64,000 nt of DNA from a virus (Duplodnaviria > Heunggongvirae > Uroviricota > Caudoviricetes). The notes beneath the pieces were generated by a model, which was not told the DNA's origin, ran no database searches, and was given only the letters and a program-made list of their open reading frames with translations. Shown here one piece after another: positions 658 to 46,119 of the stretch (positions within the stretch are counted from its first letter, which is position 1; every line of letters starts with the position of its first letter). Made by a program: the position numbers and the translations under genes. The stretch covers positions 311,248 through 375,247 of IMG/VR virus record IMGVR_UViG_3300038345_000251, one strand, 5' to 3'.

Positions 658-1218
658 ATGAAAGTTTTAGTTGTAATTGATTGCCAAAATGATTTTATTG
701 ATGGCAGTCTTAGAAATGAAGAAGCAATTAAGAAAGTTCCTAACATTGTTAAGAAAATTAAGGAAAACGAATGGGATGCAATTTATGTAACCCAAGATAC
801 TCATGGTGAAGATTATCTTACAACACGTGAGGGTAGAAATCTTCCAGTTGTACATTGTGTAAAATATACAGATGGATGGAAGATTAATGAAGACATTAAT
901 AAAGCAATTAAAGACGCTAAATTTAATCGTAATATTAATGTTGTCTATATTCATAAACCAACGTTTGGTTCTAAAACATTGAAGCAAATGATTGAAGAAG
1001 AATTTAAGTACACGAAACCTGAAGAGTTATATATTGAATTTTGCGGTTTTTGTACAGATATTTGTGTGATAAGTAATGTACTTCTTGTTAAAGAAGCACT
1101 TTATGAAAATGCAGATATTACTGTTGATGCTTCTTGTTGTGCAGGTGTAACACCTGAATCACATAATGCAGCACTTCTTACAATGAAGATGTGCCAAATA
1201 AAGGTAATTAATGAGTAA
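658..1218 (+). CDS. pncA: nicotinamidase (PncA), isochorismatase/cysteine-hydrolase family
   Basis: VLVVIDCQNDF, QDTHG, VVHCV (metal-binding D/H/H), IHK (catalytic Lys) and GFCTDICV (nucleophile Cys) align with E. coli PncA motifs. A promoter-like TATATTTG lies 19 nt upstream. Confidence 0.8.
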   Translation: MKVLVVIDCQNDFIDGSLRNEEAIKKVPNIVKKIKENEWDAIYVTQDTHGEDYLTTREGRNLPVVHCVKYTDGWKINEDINKAIKDAKFNRNINVVYIHKPTFGSKTLKQMIEEEFKYTKPEELYIEFCGFCTDICVISNVLLVKEALYENADITVDASCCAGVTPESHNAALLTMKMCQIKVINE

Positions 1219-5158: not shown

Positions 5159-7147
5159 ATGTACACATATACAGTAGGTAAAAAAAGTCAAATTGATAGT
5201 GTTTTCACTAATGGTTATAGTAGACAGTTTGCAGGTGATGCAGAAGGTGTAGACTATGGTATTGGCGTGTATTGTAATATATCATATAATGATAAAGAAA
5301 CACCAAGAGAATCATTAGGAAGATATAGTAGAGACCCACAAAATAATTGTATATTTAGAAATGAATTAGAAGGTGGTCTTGACAGATTTTTGATTTTTGA
5401 TGAACGTTTTGCTAGAAAGGTATATGGGGAACATTATTTCATTAAAGACCAAGTGTATCGTCTTTTTCCTAAAGATGTTGCTGATGATTTGTGGAAAGAT
5501 ATAAAGTGGTATATGTCTTTAGATACTTCTTCACAAGGCAATGGAAACCATATGAATGGTAGAACCTCTGGCTTATTACAATTTATGATGTCAAAACATC
5601 TTAGAGGAAATGTTGCAAACCCTAAAAAATATGAAAACATTTTTGGAAAATATAACGTTAGAGGTGCAATATATAGAGGTAGAGGAGATGGTTTTTGTAT
5701 GGTTGTTTATAACTACGATGAAATTAAACCTGTTGCATATTCAGTTGATGGTGGTAGAACATATCTTAAGAAAAACGTAAAATATACATATCCTGATATT
5801 GTAAGAAGATTAAGACATTTATATAAAAAAATAGATTTTCCAATTGCGATACAAGGTGATGATAGGATATATTATTTTGCAAAAGTTCAGAAAAAGAATG
5901 GTAAATGGAACTATGTTGATGCTACAACACAAGAAGAAATATCTGTAGTAGATTTTGATTCTTGTACATCTATTAATCCTAATAATGGAATGTTTCAAAT
6001 TGAATATAATGGTAAATTCTATAATGCTTGTCCCGATGGGTTTTTTGATAGTGAAGATGAAGGACATACATGGGATGAATTACCATTATTTGATGAAGAC
6101 ATTGATAGTTTAGATGAAGATACAAAACGTTTTAATAAACTTTTGGTAGAAAGTTTTAAAAATGTTTTAAGTGATTATAATATGTTTTCAGAAATCTTGA
6201 ACGAAATTCGTGATGAGGAAAACGATGTAGATGAAGTTTCATATTATCATTATAATGTTCCTGATTTGTCTTATTTTGATTCTTCAGATGTTCCATCTAT
6301 CTATCACGTAACCAAAGAAGGAAATGTTGAAGATATTTTTAGAAATGGCTTTGATAGAGAATTCTTAAGTGTATATGCTTATGGGAAAGGTGTATATGCT
6401 GCCTATGATGTTGCAAATGGTAGAAATCAAATTCCTAGTTATGGAACAGCAATGTTACAGTTAAAACTTATTGGTGGTTATGATAGATTTTTAATTTTTC
6501 CTAATAGTGATAACACTAAAAGACTTGCAATTAAATATTATGGAAATAATTATGATATTTTAAGCCAATTGAAATCTTTTTTACCTGAAAGGATTGCAAT
6601 AGAAGTATATGGCGCATGTGGCAGTAGTATTGAAGGATATTCACATTACGCAAGTAAATATCATATACGTGGTGCTGTCTATCAATGGGGAAGAACAATC
6701 GCAGTATTACCATATGACTTTTCAACAGTTGTTCCATATGCTGTTTCATATGATGGTGGTAAAACATTTAAAAAGAAAATTAATAATAGAAGTTGGCAAC
6801 GTTTTTTAACAAATATTGATGTTGAATGGAGATATAGCAGACAATATAAAAAAATCGAAAAACCAATTTTAGGATATAATAGTGAAGGACAAGAAACTGG
6901 TTACGCAAAAGTTCAGAAAAAAAATGGTAAATGGAATTACATTGACATTCAGACAGGTAATGAAGAATTACCATTTGATTTTGATTCATTAACAAGTCTT
7001 AATCCAGAAACAGGTGATTTCCAAGCAGAATATAAAGGAAATATATTAAATGCTTGTTTTGACGGATTTTATGATAACGATGGTGATGGTCATACATGGA
7101 ATGAACTTGATTCATATCTTAATAATCAAAATGATTTAGATTTATAA
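5159..7147 (+). CDS. internally duplicated protein (two ~330-aa halves). Each half carries a PARP-like ADP-ribosyltransferase motif set and a C-terminal WG-like beta module
   Basis: The halves align (GGLDRFLIF / GGYDRFLIF; YAKVQKKNGKWNY in both). Second half: YHVTKEGNVEDIFRNGF resembles the PARP1 HGSRTTNFAGILSQGL motif with matching H/N/I/G spacing, and YGKGVYAAYD resembles FGKGIYFAD. First half: YNYDEI resembles the catalytic YNEYIV motif. Confidence 0.4.
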   Translation: MYTYTVGKKSQIDSVFTNGYSRQFAGDAEGVDYGIGVYCNISYNDKETPRESLGRYSRDPQNNCIFRNELEGGLDRFLIFDERFARKVYGEHYFIKDQVYRLFPKDVADDLWKDIKWYMSLDTSSQGNGNHMNGRTSGLLQFMMSKHLRGNVANPKKYENIFGKYNVRGAIYRGRGDGFCMVVYNYDEIKPVAYSVDGGRTYLKKNVKYTYPDIVRRLRHLYKKIDFPIAIQGDDRIYYFAKVQKKNGKWNYVDATTQEEISVVDFDSCTSINPNNGMFQIEYNGKFYNACPDGFFDSEDEGHTWDELPLFDEDIDSLDEDTKRFNKLLVESFKNVLSDYNMFSEILNEIRDEENDVDEVSYYHYNVPDLSYFDSSDVPSIYHVTKEGNVEDIFRNGFDREFLSVYAYGKGVYAAYDVANGRNQIPSYGTAMLQLKLIGGYDRFLIFPNSDNTKRLAIKYYGNNYDILSQLKSFLPERIAIEVYGACGSSIEGYSHYASKYHIRGAVYQWGRTIAVLPYDFSTVVPYAVSYDGGKTFKKKINNRSWQRFLTNIDVEWRYSRQYKKIEKPILGYNSEGQETGYAKVQKKNGKWNYIDIQTGNEELPFDFDSLTSLNPETGDFQAEYKGNILNACFDGFYDNDGDGHTWNELDSYLNNQNDLDL

Positions 7148-7149
7148 AC

Positions 7150-7263
7150 ACTAGGGAATGATATACTTGTTTACACTTTCTATCTCAGTGTTTCATAGGG
7201 TTTGTAACCTCTTCCCTTCACACCATACAGATGTTCCCTCACCTGTTTTTAATTCATTTATTA
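7150..7263 (-). ncRNA. putative TnpB omega-RNA (reRNA) / right-end region
   Basis: Non-coding, GC-richer segment immediately 3' of tnpB on the - strand. This is the canonical position of the omega-RNA scaffold. Confidence 0.3.
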
Positions 7264-8391
7264 TTAAGTACCTATGAGATTCTGTTTCTCTAAGGCTATT
7301 GTTTTTATATTAATGGCAGCATTAATATCTCTATCATGTACCTTTCCACATTCAGGACATATCCACTCTCTATCTGATAATTTCAAATCATTGTTGATAT
7401 ATCCACAATTGTGGCATAACTTGCTACTTGGTTCAAACCTGCCTATAAATACAATGTTATTCCCATACCATTCAGATTTATATTCCAACTCTCTAATAAA
7501 TTCACTCCAAGCAGCATCAGTAATTGCTTTTGCAAGATTATGATTTTGTTCCATTCCCTTTACATTCAAGTCCTCTAAACATATGGTATCAAATCTCTTA
7601 ACTAAATCTGTAGATAACTTCTGTATGAAATCAGTTCTTTGATTTGTTATTTTCCTATATGTTTTTGCTACTTTTATCCTTGCTTTTTCACGGTTTTTAC
7701 TACCTTGCTTGGTTCTTGCAAAGCATTTTTGCCAATGAGCAAGCATCTTTTGTAATTTATCCAAATGTTTTGGATTACTGTATTTAGTGCCATCAGATAA
7801 TATGGCATAATCCTTTATTCCTAAATCAATACCAACTGCTGTTTCTGTTGCAATTGGCTTCTTTTGTTGGTTAGGTTGTTGATTATCAATCAACACTGAT
7901 AACCAATAAGTACCACATTTATCTTTAGATACAGTTACAGTACCTTGTTTACAAGTATTTTGATTCCAAGTTCTGTTCTTACATAAATCAACCCAACCCA
8001 ATTTAGGCAACTTTACTTTCCAATTATCAAAATCAAAATGTACTGAATTAATAAACTTAATACTATCTTTAGATTTCTTTTTTGATTTAAAGTTAGGGTA
8101 TTTTGTTTTTTTTCTAAAGAAAGCAGTGAATGCTGATTCAAGATTTCTAAGTGACTGTTGTAGTCCTTCATTAGTACAGGTATTCAACCATTGATAATCT
8201 TGTTGTTGTTTAAGTTGTGTTAGTTGTTTAGCAAGATGCATATATGTCAATGAACTACCATTTTCTTTATAAGCATTTGTTTTTTGTTCCAATCCCCAGT
8301 TGTAAATGAATCTAGTACAGCCAAAGAATTGAGATAACAATGCTTGTTGTTTATCATTTGGTTTTATTTTGAACTTATATGCTTTAATCAT
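7264..8391 (-). CDS. tnpB: TnpB (OrfB) RNA-guided nuclease of the IS200/IS605 family
   Basis: N-terminus MIKAYKFKIKPNDKQ. C-terminal zinc finger CHNCGYINNDLKLSDREWICPECGKVHDRDINAAINIK. The true start is at 8391, since the ORF-track start at 8466 adds an unlikely leader. Confidence 0.85.
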   Translation of the reverse strand: MIKAYKFKIKPNDKQQALLSQFFGCTRFIYNWGLEQKTNAYKENGSSLTYMHLAKQLTQLKQQQDYQWLNTCTNEGLQQSLRNLESAFTAFFRKKTKYPNFKSKKKSKDSIKFINSVHFDFDNWKVKLPKLGWVDLCKNRTWNQNTCKQGTVTVSKDKCGTYWLSVLIDNQQPNQQKKPIATETAVGIDLGIKDYAILSDGTKYSNPKHLDKLQKMLAHWQKCFARTKQGSKNREKARIKVAKTYRKITNQRTDFIQKLSTDLVKRFDTICLEDLNVKGMEQNHNLAKAITDAAWSEFIRELEYKSEWYGNNIVFIGRFEPSSKLCHNCGYINNDLKLSDREWICPECGKVHDRDINAAINIKTIALEKQNLIGT

Positions 8392-8536
8392 AATGTATAT
8401 ATGTATTACTATATATAAATAGTAAATTAAAGTCGAAAAGTCAATATTTACTTTAATTATTTTCAAAAAATTAAGGTGGATTTAGTGTAAACATGTATAT
8501 TATTTCCATATTTAATTTATGTTAATGCAGGGAATG

Positions 8537-8568
8537 TTTGATTCTCTGCATTTTTTTTTGTACTTTTG
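8537..8568 (+). promoter_or_regulatory. promoter: TTTG (8537-8540), N20, TACTTTTG (8561-8568)
   Basis: Matches the Bacteroides sigma-A consensus TTTG-N19-21-TAnnTTTG, upstream of rmlC. Confidence 0.55.
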
Positions 8569-8579
8569 TAAAAAAAGTT

Positions 8580-9185
8580 ATGTTATCTTATAATCAAATA
8601 TGTGGTTTTAATGGTTTATATATCTTAGAACCAAAAAAGTTTCTTGATGATAGAGGGTATTTTCAAGAATTATTTAACAAAGACGAATTTGAAAACTATA
8701 CTAACATTAAATTTCAACCTGTTCAAGAAAATGAAAGTTCATCTAAGGCAGGTGTTGTTAGAGGATTACATTTTCAAAAAGGTGATTTTGAACAAGCAAA
8801 ACTTGTAAAATGTTTTAGAGGTGCAATTATTGATGTCGCACTTGATTTAAGAAAAGATTCTTTTTCTTATGGAAAATTGTTCAGTACAGTACTTTCAGAA
8901 AAGAACAATAAGCAATTGTTTATCCCTAGAGGCTATGCACATGGTTTCATAGCACTTGATGAAAATACTGATAATGTAATTAGATATTTAACTGATAATC
9001 CATATTCGCCTAATGATGAAGATGGTGTTTTATTTGATAGTGAATATCTTAATCTTGCTTTTAAAAATGCTATTTGTGATGAATTTCCAAAAGGAATAGC
9101 AGAAAAATTTTTGAATTATGATTTAACGTTTTCCGAAAAAGATTTAACATTCAAAGAATGGGATAGTTACTATGAGAAAGGATAA
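8580..9185 (+). CDS. rmlC: dTDP-4-dehydrorhamnose 3,5-epimerase (RmlC), cupin fold
   Basis: RGLHFQ and FIPRGYAHGF motifs. The start at 8580 lies just downstream of a TTTG-N20-TACTTTTG promoter at 8537-8568. The ORF-track start at 8538 would include the promoter. Confidence 0.8.
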   Translation: MLSYNQICGFNGLYILEPKKFLDDRGYFQELFNKDEFENYTNIKFQPVQENESSSKAGVVRGLHFQKGDFEQAKLVKCFRGAIIDVALDLRKDSFSYGKLFSTVLSEKNNKQLFIPRGYAHGFIALDENTDNVIRYLTDNPYSPNDEDGVLFDSEYLNLAFKNAICDEFPKGIAEKFLNYDLTFSEKDLTFKEWDSYYEKG

Positions 9186-9495
9186 TGTGGATTGGCAAAA
9201 GTTTGCTGAATCGCTGTTATGGCATATTATTGTATATGATAAGAACGCTGATAGTGGATATGATATGATGTCAAACGGAGAAATTGGATGTTTTCGTTTT
9301 TCTTCGATTATAGACCCGTTTAGTTATAGACATTTAACTTGGAAAGAACTTGCACTTGAACTTGGATTATTTAAAGAATATTTAACGCCTGACGGCATAA
9401 ATGTAAAGGTTGTCCTAAAGAAAACGATTGTACAGCATTCTTTAAATATGATGAAGACCATGAACGTTGTAATTGGTGGACAGAAAATATTTTAA
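9172..9495 (+). CDS. hypothetical protein
   Basis: ORF overlapping the rmlC stop, on the same strand. Confidence 0.45.
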   Translation: MRKDNVDWQKFAESLLWHIIVYDKNADSGYDMMSNGEIGCFRFSSIIDPFSYRHLTWKELALELGLFKEYLTPDGINVKVVLKKTIVQHSLNMMKTMNVVIGGQKIF

Positions 9496-9502
9496 AGAAA
9501 AT

Positions 9503-9534
9503 TTTGGATAATTAAAATATTTTTCATATCTTTG
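9503..9534 (+). promoter_or_regulatory. promoter: TTTG, N20, TATCTTTG
   Basis: Consensus match. Shares the extended atttggataattaaaa motif with the promoter at 44626. Confidence 0.5.
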
Positions 9535-9555
9535 CAGTGTAATTCTTTAAAAAAT

Positions 9556-9888
9556 ATGGAAAAAGGAAAACCAATTAATGTAGAAGAAATTGATTCACTA
9601 TTTAAAAAATCAATTCCTAATGTTATTATTGACGCATTTAACTCTTTGATTCTTAAACATTACTCAACCATTACTAAATCTAGTGTAGTTAAACAGGAAG
9701 AAGTATTGGAAATTGTTTGTGGTGATGAAGAAGGAAAGTTTAAACGAAGCGAAGTTTTTAACAATCATTGGCTTGATGTAGAAGAAATTTTTCATGAAGC
9801 AGGATGGGTTGTTGAATATGATAGGCCTTTCTATATGGCAGGTGAAAATTTTGAACCATATTTTTCGTTTAGTAAACCAAAGCAATAA
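9556..9888 (+). CDS. hypothetical protein
   Basis: ATG 21 nt downstream of the promoter -7 box TATCTTTG (9527-9534). Confidence 0.5.
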   Translation: MEKGKPINVEEIDSLFKKSIPNVIIDAFNSLILKHYSTITKSSVVKQEEVLEIVCGDEEGKFKRSEVFNNHWLDVEEIFHEAGWVVEYDRPFYMAGENFEPYFSFSKPKQ

Positions 9889-9889
9889 T

Positions 9890-10036
9890 ATGGCAGATAT
9901 TAATGTATATTATAAAAGAAGTGAAGGTGTAAGTGAATGGCTTGCGTCTTTCAATAAACTTACATATGCAGAAATCTTTGTTGAAGGACTTATTGACAAA
10001 GGTTATGATGAAAATAAAATAATTTATGAGTTTTAA
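9890..10036 (+). CDS. hypothetical small protein (49 aa)
   Basis: ATG immediately after the upstream stop. Tightly packed. Confidence 0.3.
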   Translation: MADINVYYKRSEGVSEWLASFNKLTYAEIFVEGLIDKGYDENKIIYEF

Positions 10037-10038
10037 TT

Positions 10039-10965
10039 ATGATTAGAATTTTAGGAGAAGAAATCAAGGTGAATCATTTTCCAGATGGTTCACAAATGCT
10101 GTTAAATTTTGAACAAATTGATAGAATTGTAGGATATGCTCGTGAAAATGAAACGATGTACTCAATATCTATTCATTGGAATTATGAAAATGATGAAGAA
10201 TTAGTTACTTTGTTTTATCTTGTAAAACATATTCGTCAATGTGTTAAAGATTGTGCATTAGACTTGCATATGAGTTATATACCAAATGCAAGACTTGATA
10301 GAATTAAGAAAAATAGCGAAGTGTTTACATTAAAATATTTTGCTGATTTTATTAATTCTTTGAACTTTAGATATGTATATGTTTTTGACCCGCATTCTGA
10401 TGTAAGTGCTGCATTAATTAATAATATTAATATAATGTCACCCGAAAATGCTATTGATAAAGCATTTGATGGTATATGCCGTGATTTGTTTGGATGCGCA
10501 TGGAATATAAAGGATAAATATGAAAACATAGTGTTATATTATCCTGATTACGGTGCAAAGAAACGTTATTCAAGTCTTAAAAAGTTTGAGAAATTTAAAC
10601 TTGTTTATGGTTGTAAAACCAGGGATTGGGAAACAGGTAAGATTACAGGTTTGAAAATCTGTGATAAAGACGGTATCGTAATTGATTATTCTGAAGATAA
10701 AGAGATACTTAAAGATAAAGTTGTCTTAATGATTGATGATATTGTTTCTTATGGTGGCACACTTGCTTATAGTGCTGACGCACTTAAAGAATATGGTACA
10801 AAAGATATTTATGCATATGCATCCCATACTGAAAACAGTATTCTTGATAAAGAAAAGAGTACACTTCTTAAGAGACTTGAAAATGGAACAGTTAAACGTT
10901 TGTTTACAACAAATAGTATTTATCGTGGTGAAAATGAACATATTGAAGTAAATAATATTTTCTAA
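10039..10965 (+). CDS. ribose-phosphate pyrophosphokinase (Prs)-like enzyme, candidate ADPR-PP synthetase (Adps) of a NARP1-like NAD reconstitution pathway
   Basis: FPDGS, IPNARLDR, FDPHS, YPDYGA and VVLMIDDIVSYGGTLAYSADALKEYGTKDIYAYASH are collinear with E. coli Prs motifs. Confidence 0.7.
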   Translation: MIRILGEEIKVNHFPDGSQMLLNFEQIDRIVGYARENETMYSISIHWNYENDEELVTLFYLVKHIRQCVKDCALDLHMSYIPNARLDRIKKNSEVFTLKYFADFINSLNFRYVYVFDPHSDVSAALINNINIMSPENAIDKAFDGICRDLFGCAWNIKDKYENIVLYYPDYGAKKRYSSLKKFEKFKLVYGCKTRDWETGKITGLKICDKDGIVIDYSEDKEILKDKVVLMIDDIVSYGGTLAYSADALKEYGTKDIYAYASHTENSILDKEKSTLLKRLENGTVKRLFTTNSIYRGENEHIEVNNIF

Positions 10966-11225
10966 TGAAAAAAGAAAAGATTTATATTTGTGACCGTTGT
11001 GGTAGTGAAATTGATACAGAGAAAGAACCTTATGGTGAATTAGATTATGCATACAATGTTAAAAACAAAAGAGGCTATAACTGCCGAATGTCTTTAACAG
11101 GTAGTTATGAGCATACACATCTTTGTAAAAAATGTGCTGATTTATTTCATACTGTTCTTGGACTGTATGGGTTTGAAACTATTAGAGATAAATGGTGGGA
11201 TGAAAGTATTAATTTAAAAAAATGA
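10965..11225 (+). CDS. zinc-ribbon protein (CxxC...CxxC)
   Basis: CDRCGSE...CKKCAD. Confidence 0.45.
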   Translation: MKKEKIYICDRCGSEIDTEKEPYGELDYAYNVKNKRGYNCRMSLTGSYEHTHLCKKCADLFHTVLGLYGFETIRDKWWDESINLKK

Positions 11226-11884
11226 AACTGTTAGAAAACGAAGAATACTATATTGCTTATGCAACTATTAGTGGAAAGAAAGAAATAAGTAATATAATTG
11301 TGCCAAGTAAAATTAAAATTGTTAAAATTGATTTTACTGGAACATATTATATGTGTTATAAAGACGAAGACAAAATTCCTTTTTTAACTATACCAAAAGA
11401 AGATTTTGATAAAGATGAAGAGAATTATTGTTGTGAAACATTAAAAGGAATTGTTTGTGTTTCTAAAGACAGTAATTGGGTAAATAACAAATATTTTACT
11501 TGGCTTAAAAAAGCACTTTGGTGGTTTGATGCATATGCTAATGAACAGGTTCGAAAATTAAAGGAAAAACTTGATGAAAAAAGAGAAAAATATAGTACTG
11601 TAATCAAAGATACAATAAGAATTGGTATTGACAATTGTCCTAAGTTATCAGAAGAAGAAATACAAGAATATTTTGAGAATCATAGTGAAAAATCTCACAG
11701 ATATTGTTGGAAATCATATAAGTCTGCAATTCTTAATTATTACGAAACCTATAGACATTTTTATTGGTGGGACACACCATCCAAGTTTTGGAAAGATTTT
11801 GATTTCTATACAGAAAGAAAAACACAGAAATGGTTGTTTAATCATGAACCGTTTCAACCTAATTATTCAGAAGATGATTCATAG
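11222..11884 (+). CDS. hypothetical protein
   Basis: ORF overlapping the upstream stop. Confidence 0.5.
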   Translation: MKLLENEEYYIAYATISGKKEISNIIVPSKIKIVKIDFTGTYYMCYKDEDKIPFLTIPKEDFDKDEENYCCETLKGIVCVSKDSNWVNNKYFTWLKKALWWFDAYANEQVRKLKEKLDEKREKYSTVIKDTIRIGIDNCPKLSEEEIQEYFENHSEKSHRYCWKSYKSAILNYYETYRHFYWWDTPSKFWKDFDFYTERKTQKWLFNHEPFQPNYSEDDS

Positions 11885-11927
11885 TTTGGTATAAAAATTG
11901 ATAATGTATTTTTAAAAATTAAAAAAT

Positions 11928-11978
11928 ATGGAAATTAATGCTTTATTACTTAAAGATTTTTACAAAGCAGTGCATTAA
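11928..11978 (+). pseudogene. 5' fragment (16 codons, MEINALLLKDFYKAVH*) homologous to the start of the NAMPT-family gene at 13013
   Basis: About 78% nt identity to 13013-13063. Ends in a stop codon. Lies directly upstream of the GIY-YIG endonuclease gene. Confidence 0.5.
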
Positions 11979-12038
11979 AAACAGATTTTTATAAACTTTT
12001 TCATTATTGTTAATATTTATTAATAAAGGATATACGAC

Positions 12039-13007
12039 ATGGAAAAGATTGTTTTAGAAGAGTTATTAAATGGTGCTACTGTAACGTTGCCTGAATTTAC
12101 AAGTCATAAAAACATTGTTTATTGTTGTGAAAATTGTTTAAATGGAAAAGTTTATATTGGAGAAACTAAAAGAAGTTTAAGAGAAAGGTGGATTGACCAT
12201 AAAAATTGTATGAATAAAACGTGTAAAAGGAATATAAAAGCCGCTATTTATGATGCAATAAGAAAATATGGTACAACAAACTTTTATGTTTACATATTAG
12301 AAGAAAATTTAGAAAACGATGATAAAAGAAAAGAAAGAGAAAAGTATTGGATTTCTAAATTTAATGCATTTATTGATGCTGAAAACAGTAATGGTTATAA
12401 CATGACCACAGGAGGCTATTGTGAATCCAAAATCTCAAAACAAAAAGTAAAGAGAGAAACAAAAACATGTATTGAAAAATATGGTGTGTTACCAATAAAC
12501 ACGAAAGAAAGTAGGAAAAAGGCTTTAGAAACAAATAGGAAAAATCACAACGGTATTCTTGCTTTTCAAGCAGACATTTATAGAAAAAAAGGTAAAAAAA
12601 CACAAATTGAAAAGTATGGTATGTTAGCTGTTCATTTGCCTGAAAACAAAGAAAAAGCAAAAAAGGCAATGAAAGAATATAAAGAAAAAAATGGTGTTTT
12701 ACCTTTTAATACAAAAGAAGCAATAGAAAAAGCACAAAAGGTTGCTCCTTTATATAGAATGATAAGTTGTATAAACAGACATTTGAAAATATTAAAGGAA
12801 AAAAGTTTGAAAATTAATGCAACAAACTATGTGTTTGAAACAAATGATGTTAAACATATGTGGCAACAACATGTTCCTCATGTGTTAAATAAACTTGATG
12901 AACTAAGAAAAATTGATAAATGGAGTAATGATATGGAGAATATATTTTCTAATATCATTTATGATAAAAAGGAAAAAGGAATTAAAAAAATTAAGTTTAA
13001 ATATTAA
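12039..13007 (+). CDS. GIY-YIG homing endonuclease (Seg-like) with repeated C-terminal DNA-binding motifs
   Basis: VYIGETKRSLRERWIDHKN is a GIY-YIG core with Arg and His. Repeats KYGVLPINTKESRKKA and KNGVLPFNTKEAIEKA. Confidence 0.7.
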   Translation: MEKIVLEELLNGATVTLPEFTSHKNIVYCCENCLNGKVYIGETKRSLRERWIDHKNCMNKTCKRNIKAAIYDAIRKYGTTNFYVYILEENLENDDKRKEREKYWISKFNAFIDAENSNGYNMTTGGYCESKISKQKVKRETKTCIEKYGVLPINTKESRKKALETNRKNHNGILAFQADIYRKKGKKTQIEKYGMLAVHLPENKEKAKKAMKEYKEKNGVLPFNTKEAIEKAQKVAPLYRMISCINRHLKILKEKSLKINATNYVFETNDVKHMWQQHVPHVLNKLDELRKIDKWSNDMENIFSNIIYDKKEKGIKKIKFKY

Positions 13008-13012
13008 AGCAT

Positions 13013-14638
13013 ATGAAAATAAATCCATTATTGTTATGTGATTTTTACAAAGCGGTTCATAACATGCAAATACCGCAGAACATGGTAAAATCTGTAAGTT
13101 ATTTTACACCTCGTAGTTCACGTATTAAAATTTGGGACCAGGTAGTTAATTTTGGTTTGCAAGCATTTTGTAAAACTTATCTTATTGATTATTTTAATAA
13201 GAATTTTTTTGAAAGACCAAAAAAAGAAGTTGTAAAAGAATATCGTAAATACATGGAAGATACTCTTGGTGTTGGCGTTTGTGATTTTACTAAGATTGAA
13301 AAACTCCATGATTTAGGTTATCTACCTATTGAAGTTGTTGCTCTTCCTGAAGGTATGTTGGTAGATATTCACGTACCTATGTTTGGTATCACTAATACTC
13401 ACCCTGACTTTGCTTGGCTTGGACAAGCTCTGGAATCCCTTATTTCCGCAGAACTCTGGTATCCTATGGTATGTGCTACTGTTGGTCACACATACCGTCA
13501 AATCGTGGATAAATGGTATTCAAAGACATGTGATGATAATGTACCTCGCAGACGTGCACTTGGTAATTTTGATTTTCGTGGAGACCAAGGACTTGATGCA
13601 GCACTTAAAGCAGGTTCTGCTTGGTGTTTGTCTTTTGTAAATACTGCAACTGTACCTGTAATTCCTTATCTTGAAAAGAATTATAACTGTAATTCTTCAA
13701 TAGAAGAAGTTGGATTTGGTGCTGTTTCTACTGAACATTTTGTAATGTGTTCTAACAGTGCTATTGATACCCTCAATAATCCAGATTATGAATATGCTGA
13801 CATCGACCCTTATCGTGAACGTATATTTTTGAAGAAACTTCTTACTGAACTTTATCCTAACACTTCATTCAGTTGTGTATGTGATAGTTATGATTATTGG
13901 AATGTTGTGGAAAATATTCTTCCAACATTGAAAGAAGAAATCCTTAACCATAATGGTTGTTTACTTGTACGTGGTGATAGTGGTGATTGTGTAAAGGTTG
14001 TTACTGAAACTGTATTCAAACTTTGGGATATTTTTGGTGGTACTGTTAATAGTAAAGGGTATAAAGTACTTAATCCACACGTTAAAGCACTTTATGGTGA
14101 TAGTATTACTATTCAACGTGCAGATAAGATTTATTCTATTCTTGAACAGAATGGTTTTGCTGCACAGAACGTAAGTCTTGGTGTTGGTTCTTTCAGTATG
14201 CATTGTATTGAAGAAGTTGCTGATGTAACAGTAAGAAACTATGTTCCTGCTACCGATGGTTGTACTTCTGTTGAGGTTACTACAGGTGAAGCAGTTATTC
14301 TTTCTCCTTTCACTAGAGACACGTTTGGAATGGCGATTAAAGCTGTCTATGGTGAGTTTTTGAATGAGGATGGCAGTGTTACTAAACTTTCAATATTTAA
14401 AGACCCTAAGACTGACAGAGAATCAGGTGGTGGTAATTTCAAGAAATCACAGAAAGGATGTTGTAAAGTATTTTGGCGTGATAAATGGAACAGACGTATT
14501 ACATTTGAAGATGGTCTAACGTGGGATGAGGCTTCAACACCTGATAATTTAATGCAACCTATTTTCAAAGATGGTAAAATGATAGAAGAGCAAACCCTAT
14601 CTGAAATTCGTTATAGATTGAATAATGGAAAGTTCTAA
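13013..14638 (+). CDS. NAMPT-family phosphoribosyltransferase (NadV-like), or Namat-like nicotinamide-ADPR transferase if paired with the Prs-like gene
   Basis: Extensive collinearity with human NAMPT: DFYKAVH, IEVVALPEG, FDFRG, CDSYD, VRGDSGD, NSKGYKVL and FKDP...KK. Confidence 0.85.
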   Translation: MKINPLLLCDFYKAVHNMQIPQNMVKSVSYFTPRSSRIKIWDQVVNFGLQAFCKTYLIDYFNKNFFERPKKEVVKEYRKYMEDTLGVGVCDFTKIEKLHDLGYLPIEVVALPEGMLVDIHVPMFGITNTHPDFAWLGQALESLISAELWYPMVCATVGHTYRQIVDKWYSKTCDDNVPRRRALGNFDFRGDQGLDAALKAGSAWCLSFVNTATVPVIPYLEKNYNCNSSIEEVGFGAVSTEHFVMCSNSAIDTLNNPDYEYADIDPYRERIFLKKLLTELYPNTSFSCVCDSYDYWNVVENILPTLKEEILNHNGCLLVRGDSGDCVKVVTETVFKLWDIFGGTVNSKGYKVLNPHVKALYGDSITIQRADKIYSILEQNGFAAQNVSLGVGSFSMHCIEEVADVTVRNYVPATDGCTSVEVTTGEAVILSPFTRDTFGMAIKAVYGEFLNEDGSVTKLSIFKDPKTDRESGGGNFKKSQKGCCKVFWRDKWNRRITFEDGLTWDEASTPDNLMQPIFKDGKMIEEQTLSEIRYRLNNGKF

Positions 14639-14668
14639 AGTTCGGAGTTTTCCTGAACTTTTTTTATG
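14639..14668 (+). terminator. hairpin + T-tract after the NAMPT-family gene
   Basis: agttcggagttttcctgaact, then ttttttt. Confidence 0.45.
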
Positions 14669-14683
14669 TGAAAAAAACTTGAT

Positions 14684-14709
14684 TTTGTAATATTTATTAT
14701 GTACATTTG
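14684..14709 (+). promoter_or_regulatory. promoter-like: TACATTTG (14702-14709) with a short-spaced TTTG
   Basis: Lies upstream of the OmpA-like gene. The -33 spacing is suboptimal. Confidence 0.3.
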
Positions 14710-14750: not shown

Positions 14751-15878
14751 ATGAAGAAATTAATGACGATGATTGCAATCGCAATCTTAACAATCGGTAC
14801 AGCTTTTGCACAGGAAAACGCTAATCGTAGCGACAGCAATACAGTTGTACGTGGACCTTATTTGACTAATAACAACTTTTTTGACAATACATTCATTGGT
14901 GTTGGTGGTGGAGTAAACACCTTTGTCGCAAAAGACATCAACTTTTTACCAATAACTCCTGGTATTAATGCAGAAGCATTCCTTGGTAAATGGTACACTC
15001 CTACTATTGGTACACGTATTGGTTACAAAGGTTTAACCAATGTCGTTGAACAGAATACTAAATATTGGCAGCATTATGTACACGGTGATTTTATGTGGAA
15101 TCTTTCAAATGCTCTTGGTGGATATAAAGAAACAAGATTTTGGGATGTTATTCCTTATGTTACCGCAGGTGCATATGACATTGTAAATCAAGCAAACGGT
15201 CACAACCTTGAATATGGTGCAGGTGCAGGTATCTATAATAAGATTAGACTTACTGATAGAGTTAACCTTTACCTTGACATCAATACTCTTGTTGTAAGAG
15301 CAAATGCTTATCTTAAAACCCCTCATCGTTTTGGTTTCACACCAAGTGCAAGTTTTGGTATTGTCATCAATCTTGGTAAGAACACTGGTTTCAAACGTTC
15401 ATCAACCGTTCTTGCAAACTATTGTACAGTAAGTGACTATAACGATGTTGTAGCAAAGAACAAAGAATACGAAAGCAAAGTAAACTGTCTTGAAAATCAG
15501 AACAAAGGACTTCAGGCAACTGTTGATTCACTTAATAAGGTAAAACCTGAAATTAAGGAAATTGTTAAAGAAGTTCCTGTAAATGAAGTTTCAGTTTATT
15601 TTGAAAAAGGTAAATATGTTGTATCAGAAAAAGAACTTTCACACCTTATTGACTATGCTAAATCAGTAGACAGTACAATCGTTGTTAAAGTTATTGGTTC
15701 AGCAGATTCTAAAGAAGGTAGTGTAGAAAGAAATCAATTCCTTTCAGAACAGAGAGCAAAAGTAGTTAAAGATATTCTTATCAATAAATTTGGTTTTGAT
15801 GAAAAGAACATTGTAGTTGAAACTGCTATTGATGTTGCTGATACTCCAGAAAGAAGTAGAGTTGCTATTGTAAAATAG
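14751..15878 (+). CDS. OmpA-family outer-membrane protein (signal peptide, predicted beta-barrel, OmpA C-terminal domain)
   Basis: Signal peptide MKKLMTMIAIAILTIGTAFAQE. C-terminal SEQRAKVVKDIL... in an OmpA_C-like domain. GC-richer than its neighbours. Confidence 0.7.
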   Translation: MKKLMTMIAIAILTIGTAFAQENANRSDSNTVVRGPYLTNNNFFDNTFIGVGGGVNTFVAKDINFLPITPGINAEAFLGKWYTPTIGTRIGYKGLTNVVEQNTKYWQHYVHGDFMWNLSNALGGYKETRFWDVIPYVTAGAYDIVNQANGHNLEYGAGAGIYNKIRLTDRVNLYLDINTLVVRANAYLKTPHRFGFTPSASFGIVINLGKNTGFKRSSTVLANYCTVSDYNDVVAKNKEYESKVNCLENQNKGLQATVDSLNKVKPEIKEIVKEVPVNEVSVYFEKGKYVVSEKELSHLIDYAKSVDSTIVVKVIGSADSKEGSVERNQFLSEQRAKVVKDILINKFGFDEKNIVVETAIDVADTPERSRVAIVK

Positions 15879-18375: not shown

Positions 18376-18987
18376 ATGAAAATGACATTTGCAATTGATT
18401 GTGATGAAGTATTACGTTCATTATTGTCCAATATGATTTCATTATATAATAGAGAGTTTAATGAAAATATTGAATATGATGATGTAAAAGATTTTGTTGT
18501 TGATGTATCTTTTCCTAAGATACAGGAAACTACTGGTATAACAGCCTCACAGTGGTTTTTCCAAGACCATAGTACTGAATTATTTATGGAATCAGAAGCA
18601 TTACCTAAAGTAAAAGAAGCAATAGAAATACTTAAAGAATTTGGTGATGTCATTATTGTAACATATCAAAAGACATATAAAAATAAAATAGAAACTTTAA
18701 ATTGGTTAGAAAAACAGGGTATTTTTCCTGATGGTATCTGTTTTCTTAAAGATAAAACTTTGATTCATACTACTTTCTTCATTGATGATAATGATTGGAA
18801 TTTTAATGGATGTAATGCCCTTATGGGTATTCTTATTGATGCACCATATAATAAAGATATTGATATAAATGAATTAAAAGAAAAAAGTAATTGTAAAAAA
18901 ATGTATCGTTATCATTCATTATATGAATTTGCATGTAGTATTAAAAAAATAACAAACGTTATAAAACTTGCCGAAAATGGAATATAA
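18376..18987 (+). CDS. HAD-like hydrolase, possibly a 5'(3')-deoxyribonucleotidase family member
   Basis: N-terminal FAIDCDEVL resembles HAD motif I (DxDGVL). Confidence 0.35.
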   Translation: MKMTFAIDCDEVLRSLLSNMISLYNREFNENIEYDDVKDFVVDVSFPKIQETTGITASQWFFQDHSTELFMESEALPKVKEAIEILKEFGDVIIVTYQKTYKNKIETLNWLEKQGIFPDGICFLKDKTLIHTTFFIDDNDWNFNGCNALMGILIDAPYNKDIDINELKEKSNCKKMYRYHSLYEFACSIKKITNVIKLAENGI

Positions 18988-19939: not shown

Positions 19940-20410
19940 ATGACAATTATTTATAAAAGTGGTGATATTTTTGATAGCGAAGTAAACATTATCTGTCATC
20001 AGGTTAATGCACAAGGTGTAATGGGTAGTGGTGTTGCTAAACAGGTTAAAGATAAATATCCAAGAGTATTTGATAAATATAAGGAAGCCTGTGATAAAGA
20101 TTTGTTTAAGCTTGGTTCATGTCAGGTTGTTGCTGTAGACGATACAAAAACAAAATTTATTGCTAATCTTTGTGGACAATGGAACTTTGGTTATGATGGG
20201 AAACGTTATACCAGTTATGATGCTATTTACAGTGCTTTAGAAAAACTGAGCGATTATTGTAAAAAGAAAAACATTCAAAGTATTGGTTTTCCATATAAAA
20301 TGTCATGTGATAGGGGTGGTGCAAGTTGGCATATTATTTTCTCTATGATTGAAGATGTCTTTACTGATAACAATAACATAATAATTGAAATCTGGCAATA
20401 TAAAAAGTAA
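19940..20410 (+). CDS. macro domain protein, TARG1/OARD1/DarG-like subfamily (ADP-ribose hydrolase)
   Basis: GDIFDSEVNIICHQVNAQGVMGSGVAKQVKDKYP aligns with human TARG1 GDLF..[23 protein letters not shown]. Confidence 0.65.
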   Translation: MTIIYKSGDIFDSEVNIICHQVNAQGVMGSGVAKQVKDKYPRVFDKYKEACDKDLFKLGSCQVVAVDDTKTKFIANLCGQWNFGYDGKRYTSYDAIYSALEKLSDYCKKKNIQSIGFPYKMSCDRGGASWHIIFSMIEDVFTDNNNIIIEIWQYKK

Positions 20411-20955: not shown

Positions 20956-21312
20956 ATGACAATTAATTTAGAACCTTCAATAATACCTTATACTGATGGA
21001 GTAATTGAGATACGCTTCAGTTTAGAATTTCAAAAGATATATGATGCGGAAGTTGATTATATAGATTATATAATAAATTGTTATTATGAAGACCCTAATC
21101 ATTGTAGAATATTTACTTTTAAAGATGTATATCAATTTAATAAAGAAATAGAAGATTTAAAAGATACATTTACATTTGAAATGATAGATTCATATACAAT
21201 TGAAGCATTTAAAGTTAAAGTAATGGATTTATGTAATAAATTTATAAATGGTAGTATGATTGCAAAATCCAGTGATTACTATTTTATGTGGGATAATCAA
21301 AAATTTAATTAA
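20956..21312 (+). CDS. hypothetical protein
   Basis: ORF. Confidence 0.5.
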   Translation: MTINLEPSIIPYTDGVIEIRFSLEFQKIYDAEVDYIDYIINCYYEDPNHCRIFTFKDVYQFNKEIEDLKDTFTFEMIDSYTIEAFKVKVMDLCNKFINGSMIAKSSDYYFMWDNQKFN

Positions 21313-21313
21313 T

Positions 21314-22195
21314 ATGGAAAGAATTAAAGATTATAATAAACTTAAAGACGAATGTGTTGAATGGCTTCGTAAATGGTTTGATGAAAACGGTAAAGGTTGT
21401 AATGCTGTTATCGGTATTTCAGGAGGTAAGGATTCAACTATAGTTGCTAAACTATGTGTGGAAGCACTTGGTAAAGATAGAGTTATTGGTGTGTTGATGC
21501 CTAATGGTGTACAAAAGGATATTAATGATTCTATTGATATTTGTAAGTTATTTGATATTAAATATTATATTATTGATATTGAAAATGCTTATAATTCAAT
21601 AATTAAACAAGTAGGTGATTTTATTAAGTTTAAGACTACAACTAAATTGTCAGAACCTTCGTTACAAACAAGACAAAATCTTCCACCAAGACTTAGAATG
21701 TCAACACTTTATGCTGTTTCACAATCATTTAATGGTAGAGTAGTAGGTACTTCTAATGCTTCTGAAAATTATATCGGTTATTGTACTGCTTGGGGAGACC
21801 AGGTAAGTGATGTAGAGCCGATTGCGAATCTTACTGTAACAGAAGTTAAGAAACTTGGACATGCACTTGATATTCCTTATAAGTATGTTGAGAAAACACC
21901 TGCTGATGGACTTCCTGAAAGTTGTTCAGATGAAGAAAAATTTGGTTTTTCATATACGATGCTTGATGATTTTATTTGTGGTAACTATGAAAATGTTCCT
22001 ACCGATATACAGGCAAAAATTAACGGAATGCATATGCGTAACTTGTTTAAAATAAATAGAGTTATGATTGATACCTTTATGCCTGATGATATTTTTGAAT
22101 GGCAATATGGTTCATTAAATAGTTATCAAGAATTTATAGATGATATTGAAGCACACGATTGGCTAAATGATAATCAGGAGAATGGTGGTTTTTAA
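21314..22195 (+). CDS. nadE: NH3-dependent NAD+ synthetase (NadE)
   Basis: PP-loop VIGISGGKDSTIVAKLC, LMPNGVQ, KTPADGL and FGFSYTMLDDFICG are collinear with E. coli NadE. The start at 21314 is preferred over 21260. Confidence 0.85.
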   Translation: MERIKDYNKLKDECVEWLRKWFDENGKGCNAVIGISGGKDSTIVAKLCVEALGKDRVIGVLMPNGVQKDINDSIDICKLFDIKYYIIDIENAYNSIIKQVGDFIKFKTTTKLSEPSLQTRQNLPPRLRMSTLYAVSQSFNGRVVGTSNASENYIGYCTAWGDQVSDVEPIANLTVTEVKKLGHALDIPYKYVEKTPADGLPESCSDEEKFGFSYTMLDDFICGNYENVPTDIQAKINGMHMRNLFKINRVMIDTFMPDDIFEWQYGSLNSYQEFIDDIEAHDWLNDNQENGGF

Positions 22196-22197
22196 TT

Positions 22198-22596
22198 ATG
22201 ATTCATGTATTAAATATATCTAAAGAAGAACACCCAACAAACAATTACTATTACATTGGAAGGAATAAATTTAATACAAATATATTAGGTAATCCTTACA
22301 CACATTTAGATTTGGAAAAAACAAAAGCAATCTATCAATGTAAAGACAGGGATGAAGCTGTTAGTAATTATGCAATTTACTTTGATGCAATGTATGGACA
22401 CAATATAGAGTTTACTAAAATAATAGATGAAATTTATGAGAAATATAAAAATGGTGAAGAAGTGTATCTTGGTTGTTGGTGTTCTCCGAAATCCTGTCAT
22501 GGGGATGTTATTAGACAAAAATTGCAACAAAGATTAATTAAAGAAAAAATAAAAGAAAAAAGTGACAATAGAGGAAAATATAAAAAAGAAACTTAA
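22198..22596 (+). CDS. DUF4326-like protein (conserved CWCxPxxCHGDV motif)
   Basis: LGCWCSPKSCHGDVIRQ. Family assignment is from memory of the motif, not from a search. Confidence 0.4.
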   Translation: MIHVLNISKEEHPTNNYYYIGRNKFNTNILGNPYTHLDLEKTKAIYQCKDRDEAVSNYAIYFDAMYGHNIEFTKIIDEIYEKYKNGEEVYLGCWCSPKSCHGDVIRQKLQQRLIKEKIKEKSDNRGKYKKET

Positions 22597-34712: not shown

Positions 34713-34991
34713 ATGAACATTGCATTAGTAGCACACGATAGTAGAAAAAAAGAACTGATTGAATGGGTTGAATATAATTATGAAACCCTTATCAAACATA
34801 AACTTTTTGCTACAGGTACAACTGGTAAACTTATTGAAAATATAATGGTTAATGTAAGTGAATATGATGATAATCTTGATACTGAATATATTCACGCAAT
34901 TGAGCCATTTAAAAACAACATTACTGTTGATAACCATTTATTAGAAAAAAAACTGGAAGAAAAATATGACATATATGTCTATTTTTTATAA
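34713..34991 (+). CDS. hypothetical protein
   Basis: ORF. Confidence 0.4.
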
Positions 34992-35015
34992 AAAAACTAT
35001 TTATAATAGTATCCC

Positions 35016-35034
35016 CCTCAAATGGGGGTATGAT
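35016..35034 (+). promoter_or_regulatory. GC hairpin cccccTCAAATggggg immediately upstream of the GIY-YIG-like gene start
   Basis: Pure 5-bp G:C stem. Unusual in this AT-rich context. Confidence 0.3.
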
Positions 35035-35040
35035 TATAAA

Positions 35041-46099: not shown

Positions 46100-46119
46100 T
46101 TTTAAAAAGAATTCTGAAT

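Follow-up and report, generated by a model that had tools for sequence, protein, structure and literature searches.

A 64,000-nucleotide (nt) stretch of the IMG/VR phage record IMGVR_UViG_3300038345_000251 (positions 311,248 to 375,247; hereafter, the window) carries an adps gene followed by a NAMPT-family transferase gene, namat, whose product belongs to a distinct and apparently undescribed subfamily of Namat enzymes. Depletion of nicotinamide adenine dinucleotide (NAD+) ranks with the most common forms of antiviral defense in bacteria, and the chief countermeasure known from phages is NAD+ reconstitution pathway 1 (NARP1). This system is defined by an Adps clade of the Prs family that is specific to phages, accompanied by a homolog of Namat no more than ten genes away, and roughly 4% of phages have it (Osterman et al., bioRxiv 10.1101/2024.02.11.579819). 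A NARP1 pair with a homing endonuclease, as found here, would on its own be ordinary; what is new is a subfamily, defined by its gene context, that probably regenerates NAD+ by way of nicotinic acid. The genes and sites on which this reading turns are as follows.

658..1218, plus strand: isochorismatase-family, nicotinamidase (PncA)-like gene (PF00857 at 2e-18)
10039..10965, plus strand: adps, encoding an ADP-ribose (ADPR) pyrophosphokinase-like protein of the Prs family, 308 amino acids (aa)
13013..14638, plus strand: namat, encoding a Namat-clade transferase of the variant (Ala-type) subfamily, 541 aa (phrog_448 at 2.5e-149)
13646..13648, plus strand: codon for Ala212, which replaces the nicotinamide-specifying Asp (SPbetaL1 D215, human NAMPT D219)
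14201..14311, plus strand: clamp-tip insert at the tip of the SCH element, 37 aa (aa 397-433), predicted to form a long beta-hairpin
19940..20410, plus strand: gene for a Macro-domain protein (PF01661; Poa1p/TARG1-like), a candidate ADPR-1''-phosphate phosphatase (Adpp-like)
21260..22195, plus strand: nadE, encoding an NH3-dependent NAD synthetase (PF02540 at 4e-53; best PDB matches 3FIU and 2E18)

Judged by its sequence, the Prs-like protein is a member of the Adps clade of phages and not a cellular Prs. We base this assignment on a tree, sequence identities, motifs shared with SPbetaL1 Adps, failed Prs cut-offs, and the Namat-like neighbor in sampled phages. The protein is 36% identical to the biochemically characterized SPbetaL1 Adps versus 23% to Escherichia coli Prs, and it matches phrog_619 at 2e-58, with a weak match to Pfam Pribosyltran. 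In a neighbor-joining tree of 22 phage sequences and 7 cellular Prs sequences, the latter a gammaproteobacterial outgroup only, Prs and phage proteins were split with a bootstrap of 0.92, and the window protein nested between the Felixounavirus (Bas63-type) and SPbetaL1-type Adps lineages. The protein falls short of every curated NCBIfam Prs model (TIGR01251, 67.9 bits with a cut-off of 113; equivalogs, 66 bits or less with cut-offs of 296 to 536), as does SPbetaL1 Adps. The PDB contains no Adps structure for comparison.

The adps product keeps the shared catalytic motifs FxDGE, ARxDR (ARLDR), DxH (DPH), PDxG (PDYG), K193-x-R (K193-T-R), and DD..GGT (DDIVSYGGT). The catalytic Lys equivalent to SPbetaL1 K162 and Bacillus subtilis Prs K197 is thus present together with the ATP-binding and DD...GGT motifs. 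Absent from the window protein and SPbetaL1 Adps alike are the N-terminal 14 residues of Prs, its C-terminal 17-residue tail, and its Arg-rich RVRSARVPI loop. The Prs-invariant Thr225 of the 5-phosphate loop (DTGGT) is Tyr in the window protein and Phe in SPbetaL1 Adps; with Thr225 gone and the protein placed in the Adps clade, it neither retains every ribose-5-phosphate residue nor groups with cellular Prs. Its homologs occur in 1,370 of 50,697 phage records, SPbetaL1 Adps among them, and in all five cultured phages sampled, a NAMPT-like gene follows the Prs-like gene. In the window, namat starts 2,047 nt and three open reading frames (ORFs) 3' of adps on the same strand, well inside the ten genes of the NARP1 definition.

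The transferase is, on similar grounds, a member of the Adps-associated Namat clade and not a NadV, because its best sequence and fold matches are to Namat, the tree separates it from T4-like NadV, and the clamp residues are conserved. Its best solved relatives are the SPbetaL1 Namat structures 9W5X and 9W5W (7.5e-106 by sequence; Foldseek 3e-47, with a TM score of 0.90), and it is 44% identical to SPbetaL1 Namat and 24 to 28% identical to NadV. The NadV of Haemophilus ducreyi (9KE8), a genuine enzyme forming nicotinamide mononucleotide (NMN), scores close behind, and overall similarity was therefore dropped as a discriminator in favor of clade, motif, and context. In a neighbor-joining tree, the T4-like and KVP40-like NadV proteins split from all Adps-associated enzymes at a bootstrap of 1.0, with the window clade lying among the Adps-associated Namats. 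Joint mutation of R40 and F392 abolishes the activity of SPbetaL1 Namat (PMC12774641). Both residues are conserved in the window transferase, as R37 and F394, and R37, the SCL stacking residue, is invariant in 57 homologs. The clamp motif reads GGGLLQ..DRD in NadV, GS[FY]TYQ[YF]xTRD in canonical Namat, and GSFSMHCIEE...PFTRD in the window clade.

These results bear on conventional nicotinamide salvage, in which Prs would supply phosphoribosyl pyrophosphate (PRPP) and NadV would make NMN. Public annotations describe the pair in just these terms (ribose-phosphate pyrophosphokinase and nicotinamide phosphoribosyltransferase), and the score of H. ducreyi NadV, almost as good overall as that of Namat, is compatible with them. 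We nonetheless consider salvage very improbable: the curated Prs models all fail, the trees put both proteins with validated NARP1 enzymes, the clamp retains G-S-F where NadV has G-G-G, and the nicotinamide-specifying Asp is absent. The trees and motifs thus bear out a preliminary description of this DNA, which had preferred an Adps and Namat-type pair to Prs and NadV.

The window enzyme departs from canonical Namat in its nicotinamide pocket. When all listed ligand-contacting residues of SPbetaL1 Namat were aligned, F189 (F186 in the window), R192 (R189), R306 (R320), D13' (D10), Y15' (Y12), and the catalytic His and D308 equivalents were conserved; D215 was replaced by A212, A242 by S239, H187 by Gly, G213 by Asn, and H207 by Trp, in each case clade-wide. 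Ala212 lies in the motif VNTATVP, versus the canonical G[ST]D[TS], and is invariant in 57 close homologs. Throughout the window clade, the position of D215, whose side chain hydrogen-bonds the amide of nicotinamide, is Ala, or Ser in one branch, so that GTDT becomes [NKL][TS][AS]T; it is Asp or Glu in every canonical Namat and NadV examined. This change covaries perfectly with four others: QGHDFSMR to ALGxF[SD]FR, AGHLL to [AS][GA]WCL, PATEH to VSTEH, and a compact to an expanded clamp.

Asp219, His191, and Gly217 of human NAMPT form one hydrogen-bond network (PMC4186856). In the window clade, the His and Gly partners of the Asp are replaced as well. As recounted in PMC4919578, which cites Khan et al. 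2006, the D219A enzyme loses activity and D219S switches substrate affinity; D215A in SPbetaL1 Namat lowers NAD+ output about 8-fold (PMC12774641). The pocket changes in the window clade argue against nicotinamide as its preferred base.

The selectivity clamp is also modified. Of the SCH consensus GSXphiXphiXphiTRD, G-S-F and T-R-D are present, and positions 4 to 8 read S-M-H-C-IEE...[hairpin]...PF; the position-7 Tyr has no clear equivalent. The segment spans 22 to 47 residues in the window clade versus 13 in canonical enzymes. At least 9 extra residues occupy the SCH site across the whole clade, and a tip insert is missing in 19 of the 57 homologs and adds 4 to 31 residues in the others. The HMMER alignment to 9W5X breaks exactly at the insert, which in an AlphaFold2 (AF2) model with a pLDDT of 85.5 is a two-stranded hairpin (strands 398-411 and 419-432). 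The +25 insert type of the window is conserved in at least 10 homolog clusters, and other clade members have either no insert or unrelated ones. The preliminary description had proposed the NAMPT-like protein as a Namat. This holds for the clade and fails for the canonical type, given the loss of the nicotinamide-specifying Asp and its partners and the interrupted clamp motif.

Several further observations concern the same pocket. SPbetaL1 Ser190, which contacts the NMN phosphate, corresponds to Asp187 (13571-13573) in the window and its nearer relatives and to Ser or Gly in other variant members. One branch of the variant subfamily (IMG/VR loci L177-L182; related loci are numbered in this way throughout) has Ser at the D215 position (KTST), the residue reported to switch the substrate affinity of human NAMPT, together with the clamp GAFCFSA..VVVTRDM and PncA-like, NadE, and Macro genes nearby. 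Three other IMG/VR loci (L020, L021, and L024) are Ala-type (KTAT) with a long clamp insert. We also considered two crAss-like phages as cultured carriers of the variant: the Bacteroides phage DAC15 (L191, 4957-7698) and the Kolpuevirus 'frurule' (L192, 5989-8535). In both, the NAMPT-like gene precedes the Prs-like gene, with a small ORF between the pair in DAC15 and a 15-nt gap in frurule. Both were rejected, since the D215 position is Glu (GSET), the clamp is compact, and neither NadE nor a PncA-like gene is present. No cultured carrier of the variant emerged from this analysis, both cultured Bacteroides crAss-like phages checked being Glu-type.

Among the loci compared, the variant subfamily, and only that one, is linked to a nicotinamidase-like gene and nadE, often with a Macro phosphatase gene. 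Both a PncA-like gene and NadE lie within 8 kb at 21 of 26 Ala/Ser-type loci and at none of 33 Asp/Glu-type loci (counts after duplicate removal; Fisher p = 1.3e-11, not corrected for phylogeny). NadE is found in 46 of the 50,697 phage records versus 1,370 for Adps, and the large groups of canonical-NARP1 phages are essentially without it. The recurrent arrangement is a compact module, nicotinamidase-like - adps - namat - [macro] - nadE, with gaps of 0 to 20 nt in L008, L009, and L016. In L016, these genes occupy 6667-7179, 7187-7984, 7986-9476, 9476-9976, and 10008-10727, in that order; in L008 and L009, nadE starts 0 to 6 nt after namat. L002, L167, and L172 have the order adps-namat-macro-nadE-pncA and so retain the linkage.

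The individual genes follow the same pattern. The PncA-like gene of the window lies 8.8 kb 5' of adps and 11.8 kb 5' of namat, and it stands directly 5' of adps in relatives, with homologs 46 to 63% identical adjoining adps in L004-L019. Its best solved relative is the Pyrococcus horikoshii pyrazinamidase/nicotinamidase 1ILW (1e-8), and all six catalytic and metal residues are conserved (equivalents of D10, D52, H54, H71, K94, and C133). The PDB matches of the Macro protein include the Poa1p structures 6LFQ and 6LFT, its phage homologs are annotated as Poa1p-like or phosphatase, and its gene lies directly 3' of namat in L002, L010, L016, L167, and L172. In most members of the variant subfamily, nadE follows namat by 0 to 1.4 kb. 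In the window itself, the pathway genes are all intact but dispersed over 21.5 kb, with TnpB, endonuclease, and sugar-nucleotide genes and orphan ORFs between them.

Taken together, we think it fairly probable that the region is a NARP1-type counter-defense operon through which NAD+ would be rebuilt after a host NADase cuts it to ADPR and nicotinamide. In the scheme that we propose, the nicotinamidase would convert the nicotinamide released by host NADases to nicotinic acid, and Adps would convert ADPR to its pyrophosphate (ADPR-PP). The variant transferase would then join ADPR-PP and nicotinic acid into deamido-NAD (NaAD), and NadE would amidate NaAD to NAD+, possibly reusing the ammonia released by the nicotinamidase. 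We favor this deamidated scheme because it gives all of the linked genes a role, accounts for the missing Asp, and balances ammonia; read as a whole from the specificity residue and the gene context, it has in our estimate a slightly better than even chance of being correct. The narrower proposal, that the variant transferase is a nicotinate ADP-ribosyltransferase which with nicotinamidase, Adps, and NadE (and an optional Macro phosphatase) would make up a fourth closed NAD+-reconstitution pathway, we regard as evenly balanced.

The closest competitor is canonical NARP1, in which the transferase would make NAD+ from ADPR-PP and nicotinamide, and the nicotinamidase-like gene and nadE would be a parallel Preiss-Handler boost to the host or unrelated auxiliary genes. 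The clade membership of both enzymes speaks for it, as do the conserved clamp residues R37 and F394 and the conserved equivalents of the catalytic His, R192, R306, D308, D13', and Y15'. The extra genes are moreover not adjacent in the window, L003, or L029, and Ser239 (A242S) could in principle hydrogen-bond the amide. However, loss of the Asp harms nicotinamide use in both enzymes in which it was tested (about 8-fold lower output for SPbetaL1 D215A; loss of activity for human D219A), and a phage nicotinamidase would destroy the transferase's own substrate. Canonical NARP1 also leaves unexplained why the pocket changes covary with NadE/PncA linkage (21/26 versus 0/33) and why that linkage survives changes in gene order. 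Since the nicotinamide-specifying Asp and its partners are lost, the clamp motif is interrupted, and nicotinamidase-like and NadE genes are linked, the condensation of ADPR-PP with nicotinamide to NAD+ is probably not the reaction of this enzyme, and we consider canonical NARP1 doubtful here.

A second competitor dispenses with ADPR-PP. In a Francisella-like route, the Prs-like protein would supply PRPP, the transferase, as a nicotinate phosphoribosyltransferase, would make nicotinic acid mononucleotide (NaMN) from nicotinic acid and PRPP, NadE would convert NaMN to NMN, and a host adenylyltransferase would complete NAD+. The best solved relative of the window NadE is indeed the Francisella enzyme 3FIU, an NMN synthetase; SPbetaL1 Namat keeps PRPP activity in vitro; and loss of the nicotinamide-specifying Asp fits this route too. 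Against it, the Prs-like protein groups with Adps and lacks the Prs-invariant features, Thr225 included, and the adenine-stacking clamp residues are conserved. Neither the compact modules nor the window ORFs scanned contain an NMN/NaMN adenylyltransferase; Pfam scans of the window ORFs gave none, with some small ORFs lying outside the scan. The neighboring gene in D485, used as a KVP40-like 'NatV' probe, has no recognizable domain and is no guide on this point. We consider the Francisella-like route quite improbable.

Several points weigh against the deamidated scheme. Nicotinic acid use by the variant enzyme is read from one specificity residue and from gene context, and the ability to bind nicotinamide might be regained through A242S or through other changes in the pocket. 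The phages with variant loci are all related and all from gut or rumen, so that host or lineage effects could contribute to the 21/26 versus 0/33 contrast. Neither a PncA-like gene nor NadE turns up within 8 kb in L003 and L029, which are the window's closest relatives, and the dispersal of the genes in the window means that tight operonic coupling is not universal. In L020, L021, and L024, the contig DNA examined gave no sign of Adps, a PncA-like gene, or NadE; their transferases may work differently, or the partner genes may lie further off. The Francisella relative of NadE prefers NaMN, and the substrate is not readable from sequence. Finally, the trees are neighbor-joining trees, and the cellular Prs outgroup is drawn from gammaproteobacteria only.

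The deamidated scheme can be set beside the systems already described. With NARP1 (Namat structures 9W5X/9W5W, PMC12774641), the window shares an Adps-clade gene followed by a NAMPT-family gene on the same strand, the catalytic core, R40/F392, the G-S-F...T-R-D frame, and the phage context. It differs in that Asp215 is Ala or Ser in the window subfamily, H187, G213, H207, and A242 are replaced, and a hairpin of 9 to 45 aa interrupts the SCH consensus. It differs further in the link to NadE and a nicotinamidase-like gene, neither of which occurs at the canonical NARP1 loci examined, and in the two orphan ORFs and the homing endonuclease that separate the pair. NARP1-AP consists of Adps-Adpp-Namat with a Macro-domain ADPR-1''-phosphate phosphatase (bioRxiv 10.64898/2026.01.28.702374). 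As in that system, a Poa1p-like Macro gene accompanies the pair, directly after namat in the five relatives named above, which have it within the two genes that the NARP1-AP rule allows (PF01661, PF14519, or PF20016 within two genes). In the window, however, the Macro gene lies 5.3 kb and about eight genes 3' of namat, and unlike the window subfamily, characterized NARP1-AP has neither NadE nor nicotinamidase. RyDEP accessory systems have also been described.

NARP2 (NadV and NatV, KVP40 type) and NARP3 (PnuC and NadR; PMC13464706) are likewise phage-encoded means of NAD+ restoration, and NARP2 uses a homologous NAMPT-family enzyme. NadV nevertheless falls in a clade of its own (bootstrap 1.0), carries the motif GGGLLQ..DRD, and keeps the Asp. 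No NMN adenylyltransferase, PnuC, or NadR was found in the window ORFs scanned, and NARP3, as an unrelated PnuC/NadR route, was rejected as a prior description. The bacterial Preiss-Handler pathway (PncA to PncB to NadD to NadE) resembles our scheme in starting with a nicotinamidase and ending with an NH3-dependent NAD synthetase, via deamido-NAD. It differs in that PncB and NadD would be replaced by Adps and a nicotinate-accepting ADPR transferase, so that ADPR would be recycled, with no PRPP and ATP spent for adenylylation. Formation of deamido-NAD from ADPR-PP and nicotinic acid would be a reaction not described in any organism. The searchable literature, including the core NARP1 papers and excluding subscription-only texts, contains no link between Namat or NARP1 and NadE, nicotinamidase, or nicotinic acid.

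The interval between adps and namat has a history of its own. The preliminary description had placed its ORFs, the flanking pair, and a gene-start stub correctly, and all are present. The interval contains the following.

10965..11225, plus strand: orf86, a small CxxC...CxxC protein (two CxxC pairs), 86 aa; start overlaps the adps stop (ATGA)
11222..11884, plus strand: orf220, an orphan protein, 220 aa; start overlaps the orf86 stop (ATGA)
11928..11978, plus strand: stub comprising the resident namat's original codons 1 to 16 and a stop created at the insertion junction
11977..13092, plus strand: endonuclease cassette and co-conversion tract, comprising a 62-nt leader, the endonuclease ORF, a 5-nt spacer, and replacement namat codons 1 to 27
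12039..13007, plus strand: free-standing GIY-YIG homing endonuclease gene, 322 aa (PF01541, TIGR01453, PHROG homing endonucleases)

Sequence comparison identifies the GIY-YIG gene as a genuine recent homing insertion. We read it so because an empty-site relative exists, the boundaries are exact, identity to an occupied relative forms a gradient, and an intron is absent. The empty-site relative, L027, is a 5.6-kb contig with the order adps-orf84-orf220-namat and no endonuclease. Window positions 8508-11976 are 98.2% identical to it across adps, orf86, orf220, a 43-nt spacer, and the stub, and this block ends at 11976. On the far side, 13016-13092 (namat codons 1 to 27) carries 33 substitutions relative to L027, and 13093-14217 is again 99.2% identical. 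The foreign part of the live namat is thus its first 27 codons.

The stub, MEINALLLKDFYKAVH followed by a stop, matches the live start, MKINPLLLCDFYKAVH, at 36 of 48 nt and 13 of 16 aa, the next-best 48-mer in the window reaching 29 of 48. To the intact namat start of endonuclease-free L027 (MEINALLLKDFYKAVH...), it matches at 48 of 49 nt; the 5' region of the L027-type namat reads ...TTTTACAAAGCAGTGCATTCTGAAATGATTCCTAAG.... The stub had been described as a decayed copy of the first 16 namat codons; those codons they are, but they have not decayed, as the near-identity to L027 shows. The companion proposal, that the endonuclease insertion left the stub behind, agrees with the exact boundaries and with synteny in L027. 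The cassette thus landed after namat codon 16, truncating the old 5' end and keeping namat intact through the recoded codons 1 to 27; because of this recoding, the presumed target site would be altered as well.

The occupied relative is L003, the nearest in IMG/VR. The same endonuclease (92% identical in aa) occupies the same junction there, next to a remnant that is shorter (FYKIVH followed by a stop), and this is the only other full-length copy of the endonuclease in IMG/VR. The cassette is 90 to 94% identical between the two, Namat 79%, and Adps 50%, with nucleotide identity decaying with distance from the endonuclease. The endonuclease scores 68.8 bits on TIGR01453 (cut-off 56). No group I intron or other Rfam family was found around it, and a group I intron was rejected for want of any Rfam match at E <= 1. 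Large phages carry free-standing GIY-YIG endonucleases, such as the Seg-like enzymes of the T4 literature, that home without an intron and co-convert their flanks. The window gene has the hallmarks of this class: the domain, no intron or intein, an empty site in L027 versus an occupied one in L003, and flank co-conversion. Like Seg-type enzymes, it adjoins its presumed target, varies in presence between close relatives, and is flanked by co-converted sequence whose identity falls off with distance. Unlike theirs, its cassette lies within the target gene's 5' end with recoded codons 1 to 27, leaving a 16-codon stub with no gene split, intron, or intein.

Two more mosaic segments distinguish the window namat from that of L027. 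One covers the clamp insert (14218-14335), and the other the last ~58 codons and downstream DNA (14465-14700); their surroundings are 99% identical. The clamp tip seems, from these alignments, to be exchanged as a cassette between close relatives.

The pair had been thought adjacent before the insertion, which the order of genes in L027 contradicts. Adjacency of adps and namat (2 to 15 nt) occurs only in more distant relatives, including L006-L009 and L016. From these comparisons, orf86 and orf220 are lineage-specific ORFs that lay between adps and namat before the endonuclease arrived. Homologs of orf86 are confined to L027 (92%), to L029/L030 (42%, at the same position), and to three clusters in a search of 5.8 billion proteins, and its zinc-finger Pfam matches are sub-threshold. 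Beyond its own 97% cluster, orf220 had no homolog in searches of 5.8 billion and 1.84 billion proteins, and it has no Pfam, PHROG, or NCBIfam match. Its AF2 model, with a pLDDT of 37.5, is of no use; at the base composition of the window, the probability that 220 codons stay open by chance is ~1e-9. A RyR-domain (RyDEP) or Macro accessory between adps and namat was also considered and rejected, as neither ORF matches PF02026 or a Macro family.

Such insertions invite the view that the locus is decaying, with the endonuclease, orphan ORFs, and TnpB having scattered and disabled the pathway in this phage. The spread of the module over 21.5 kb, with TnpB, several homing endonucleases, and orphan ORFs in between, would accord with it. 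Yet each of the five genes is an intact ORF whose catalytic residues are conserved, adps-orf220 and most of namat are 98.2% and 99.2% identical to the independent relative L027, and the endonuclease cassette restores a complete namat reading frame. Decay therefore strikes us as most unlikely, and a functional pathway of the deamidated type remains our preferred reading.

Flanking features and the wider setting of the window include the following.

9993..10020, plus strand: sigma-70-like promoter match just 5' of adps (TTGACA-16-TAAAAT, 11/12, the best of the region)
14627..14661, plus strand: terminator-like hairpin right after namat
39737-40978 (minus strand) and 14751-15878: a BACON-domain protein and a protein of the OmpA family with an apparent hydrophobic leader at its N terminus

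The promoter-like match and the hairpin are weak evidence for one transcription unit: in the promoter scan, the match count was not above that of shuffled sequence, the consensus did not include Bacteroidota-type promoters, and the single best match alone is given here. The window encodes a terminase, a helicase, and several HNH, GIY-YIG, and LAGLIDADG endonucleases, and its source is a large phage of the gut or rumen. The BACON-domain and OmpA-like proteins point to a Bacteroidota host. The GC content is ~28%, and related contigs reach 355 kb; a sequence identical to the window is also present in a publicly available sequencing run, and a contig of 0.2 to 1 Mb likewise encodes the Namat protein. 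Across all 64 kb (1-64000), there is no tRNA gene and no Rfam family at the gathering threshold.

Other elements of the window are recorded here in their own right. Besides the endonuclease in namat, four homing-endonuclease genes lie at 1601-2719, 34966-36171, 44762-46099, and 55194-56249; they comprise two paralogous HNH enzymes (phrog_681/559), a second GIY-YIG enzyme (SegE-like), and one LAGLIDADG enzyme. A TnpB/IS605 OrfB-type gene (HTH_OrfB_IS605, OrfB_IS605, Cas12f1-like TNB) occupies 7264-8466 on the minus strand, between a large ORF with no assigned family and an RmlC-like gene. In L029, the same genes flank the site and TnpB is absent, and the gene looks like a separate recent insertion. 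More nucleotide-handling genes, at 18376-18987, 22198-22596, 50011-50466, and 54273-55139, encode an NT5C 5'-nucleotidase, a DUF4326 protein, a NUDIX hydrolase, and a calcineurin-like phosphoesterase; the DUF4326 gene lies directly 3' of nadE in the window and also adjoins nadE in L019. GC content peaks at 38% at 46001-48000, versus ~28% elsewhere, overlapping a 555-aa ORF (46120-47787; phrog_850, 'RNA-binding protein').

The insertion in namat matters for its own sake. Its matched occupied and empty alleles are an unusually clean natural example of homing with the co-conversion tract mapped, and the recoded replacement start is a way for an element to occupy the 5' end of a gene without an intron. 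The hypervariable clamp hairpin, exchanged between genes that are 99% identical elsewhere, may mark a place where host and phage are still in conflict.

If the deamidated scheme is correct, the variant subfamily would bring a new enzymatic reaction and a new counter-defense pathway through nicotinic acid and deamido-NAD, one that recycles both fragments of NADase cleavage by way of the deamidated branch. It would account for the presence of NadE and nicotinamidase genes in some phages, and it would mean that annotation tools lump two biochemically different systems together as NARP1. In phage metagenomes from gut and rumen, the subfamily looks abundant, many of its close homologs lying on contigs of 100 to 360 kb, and because of this apparent abundance, it bears on the ecology of phages and Bacteroidota.

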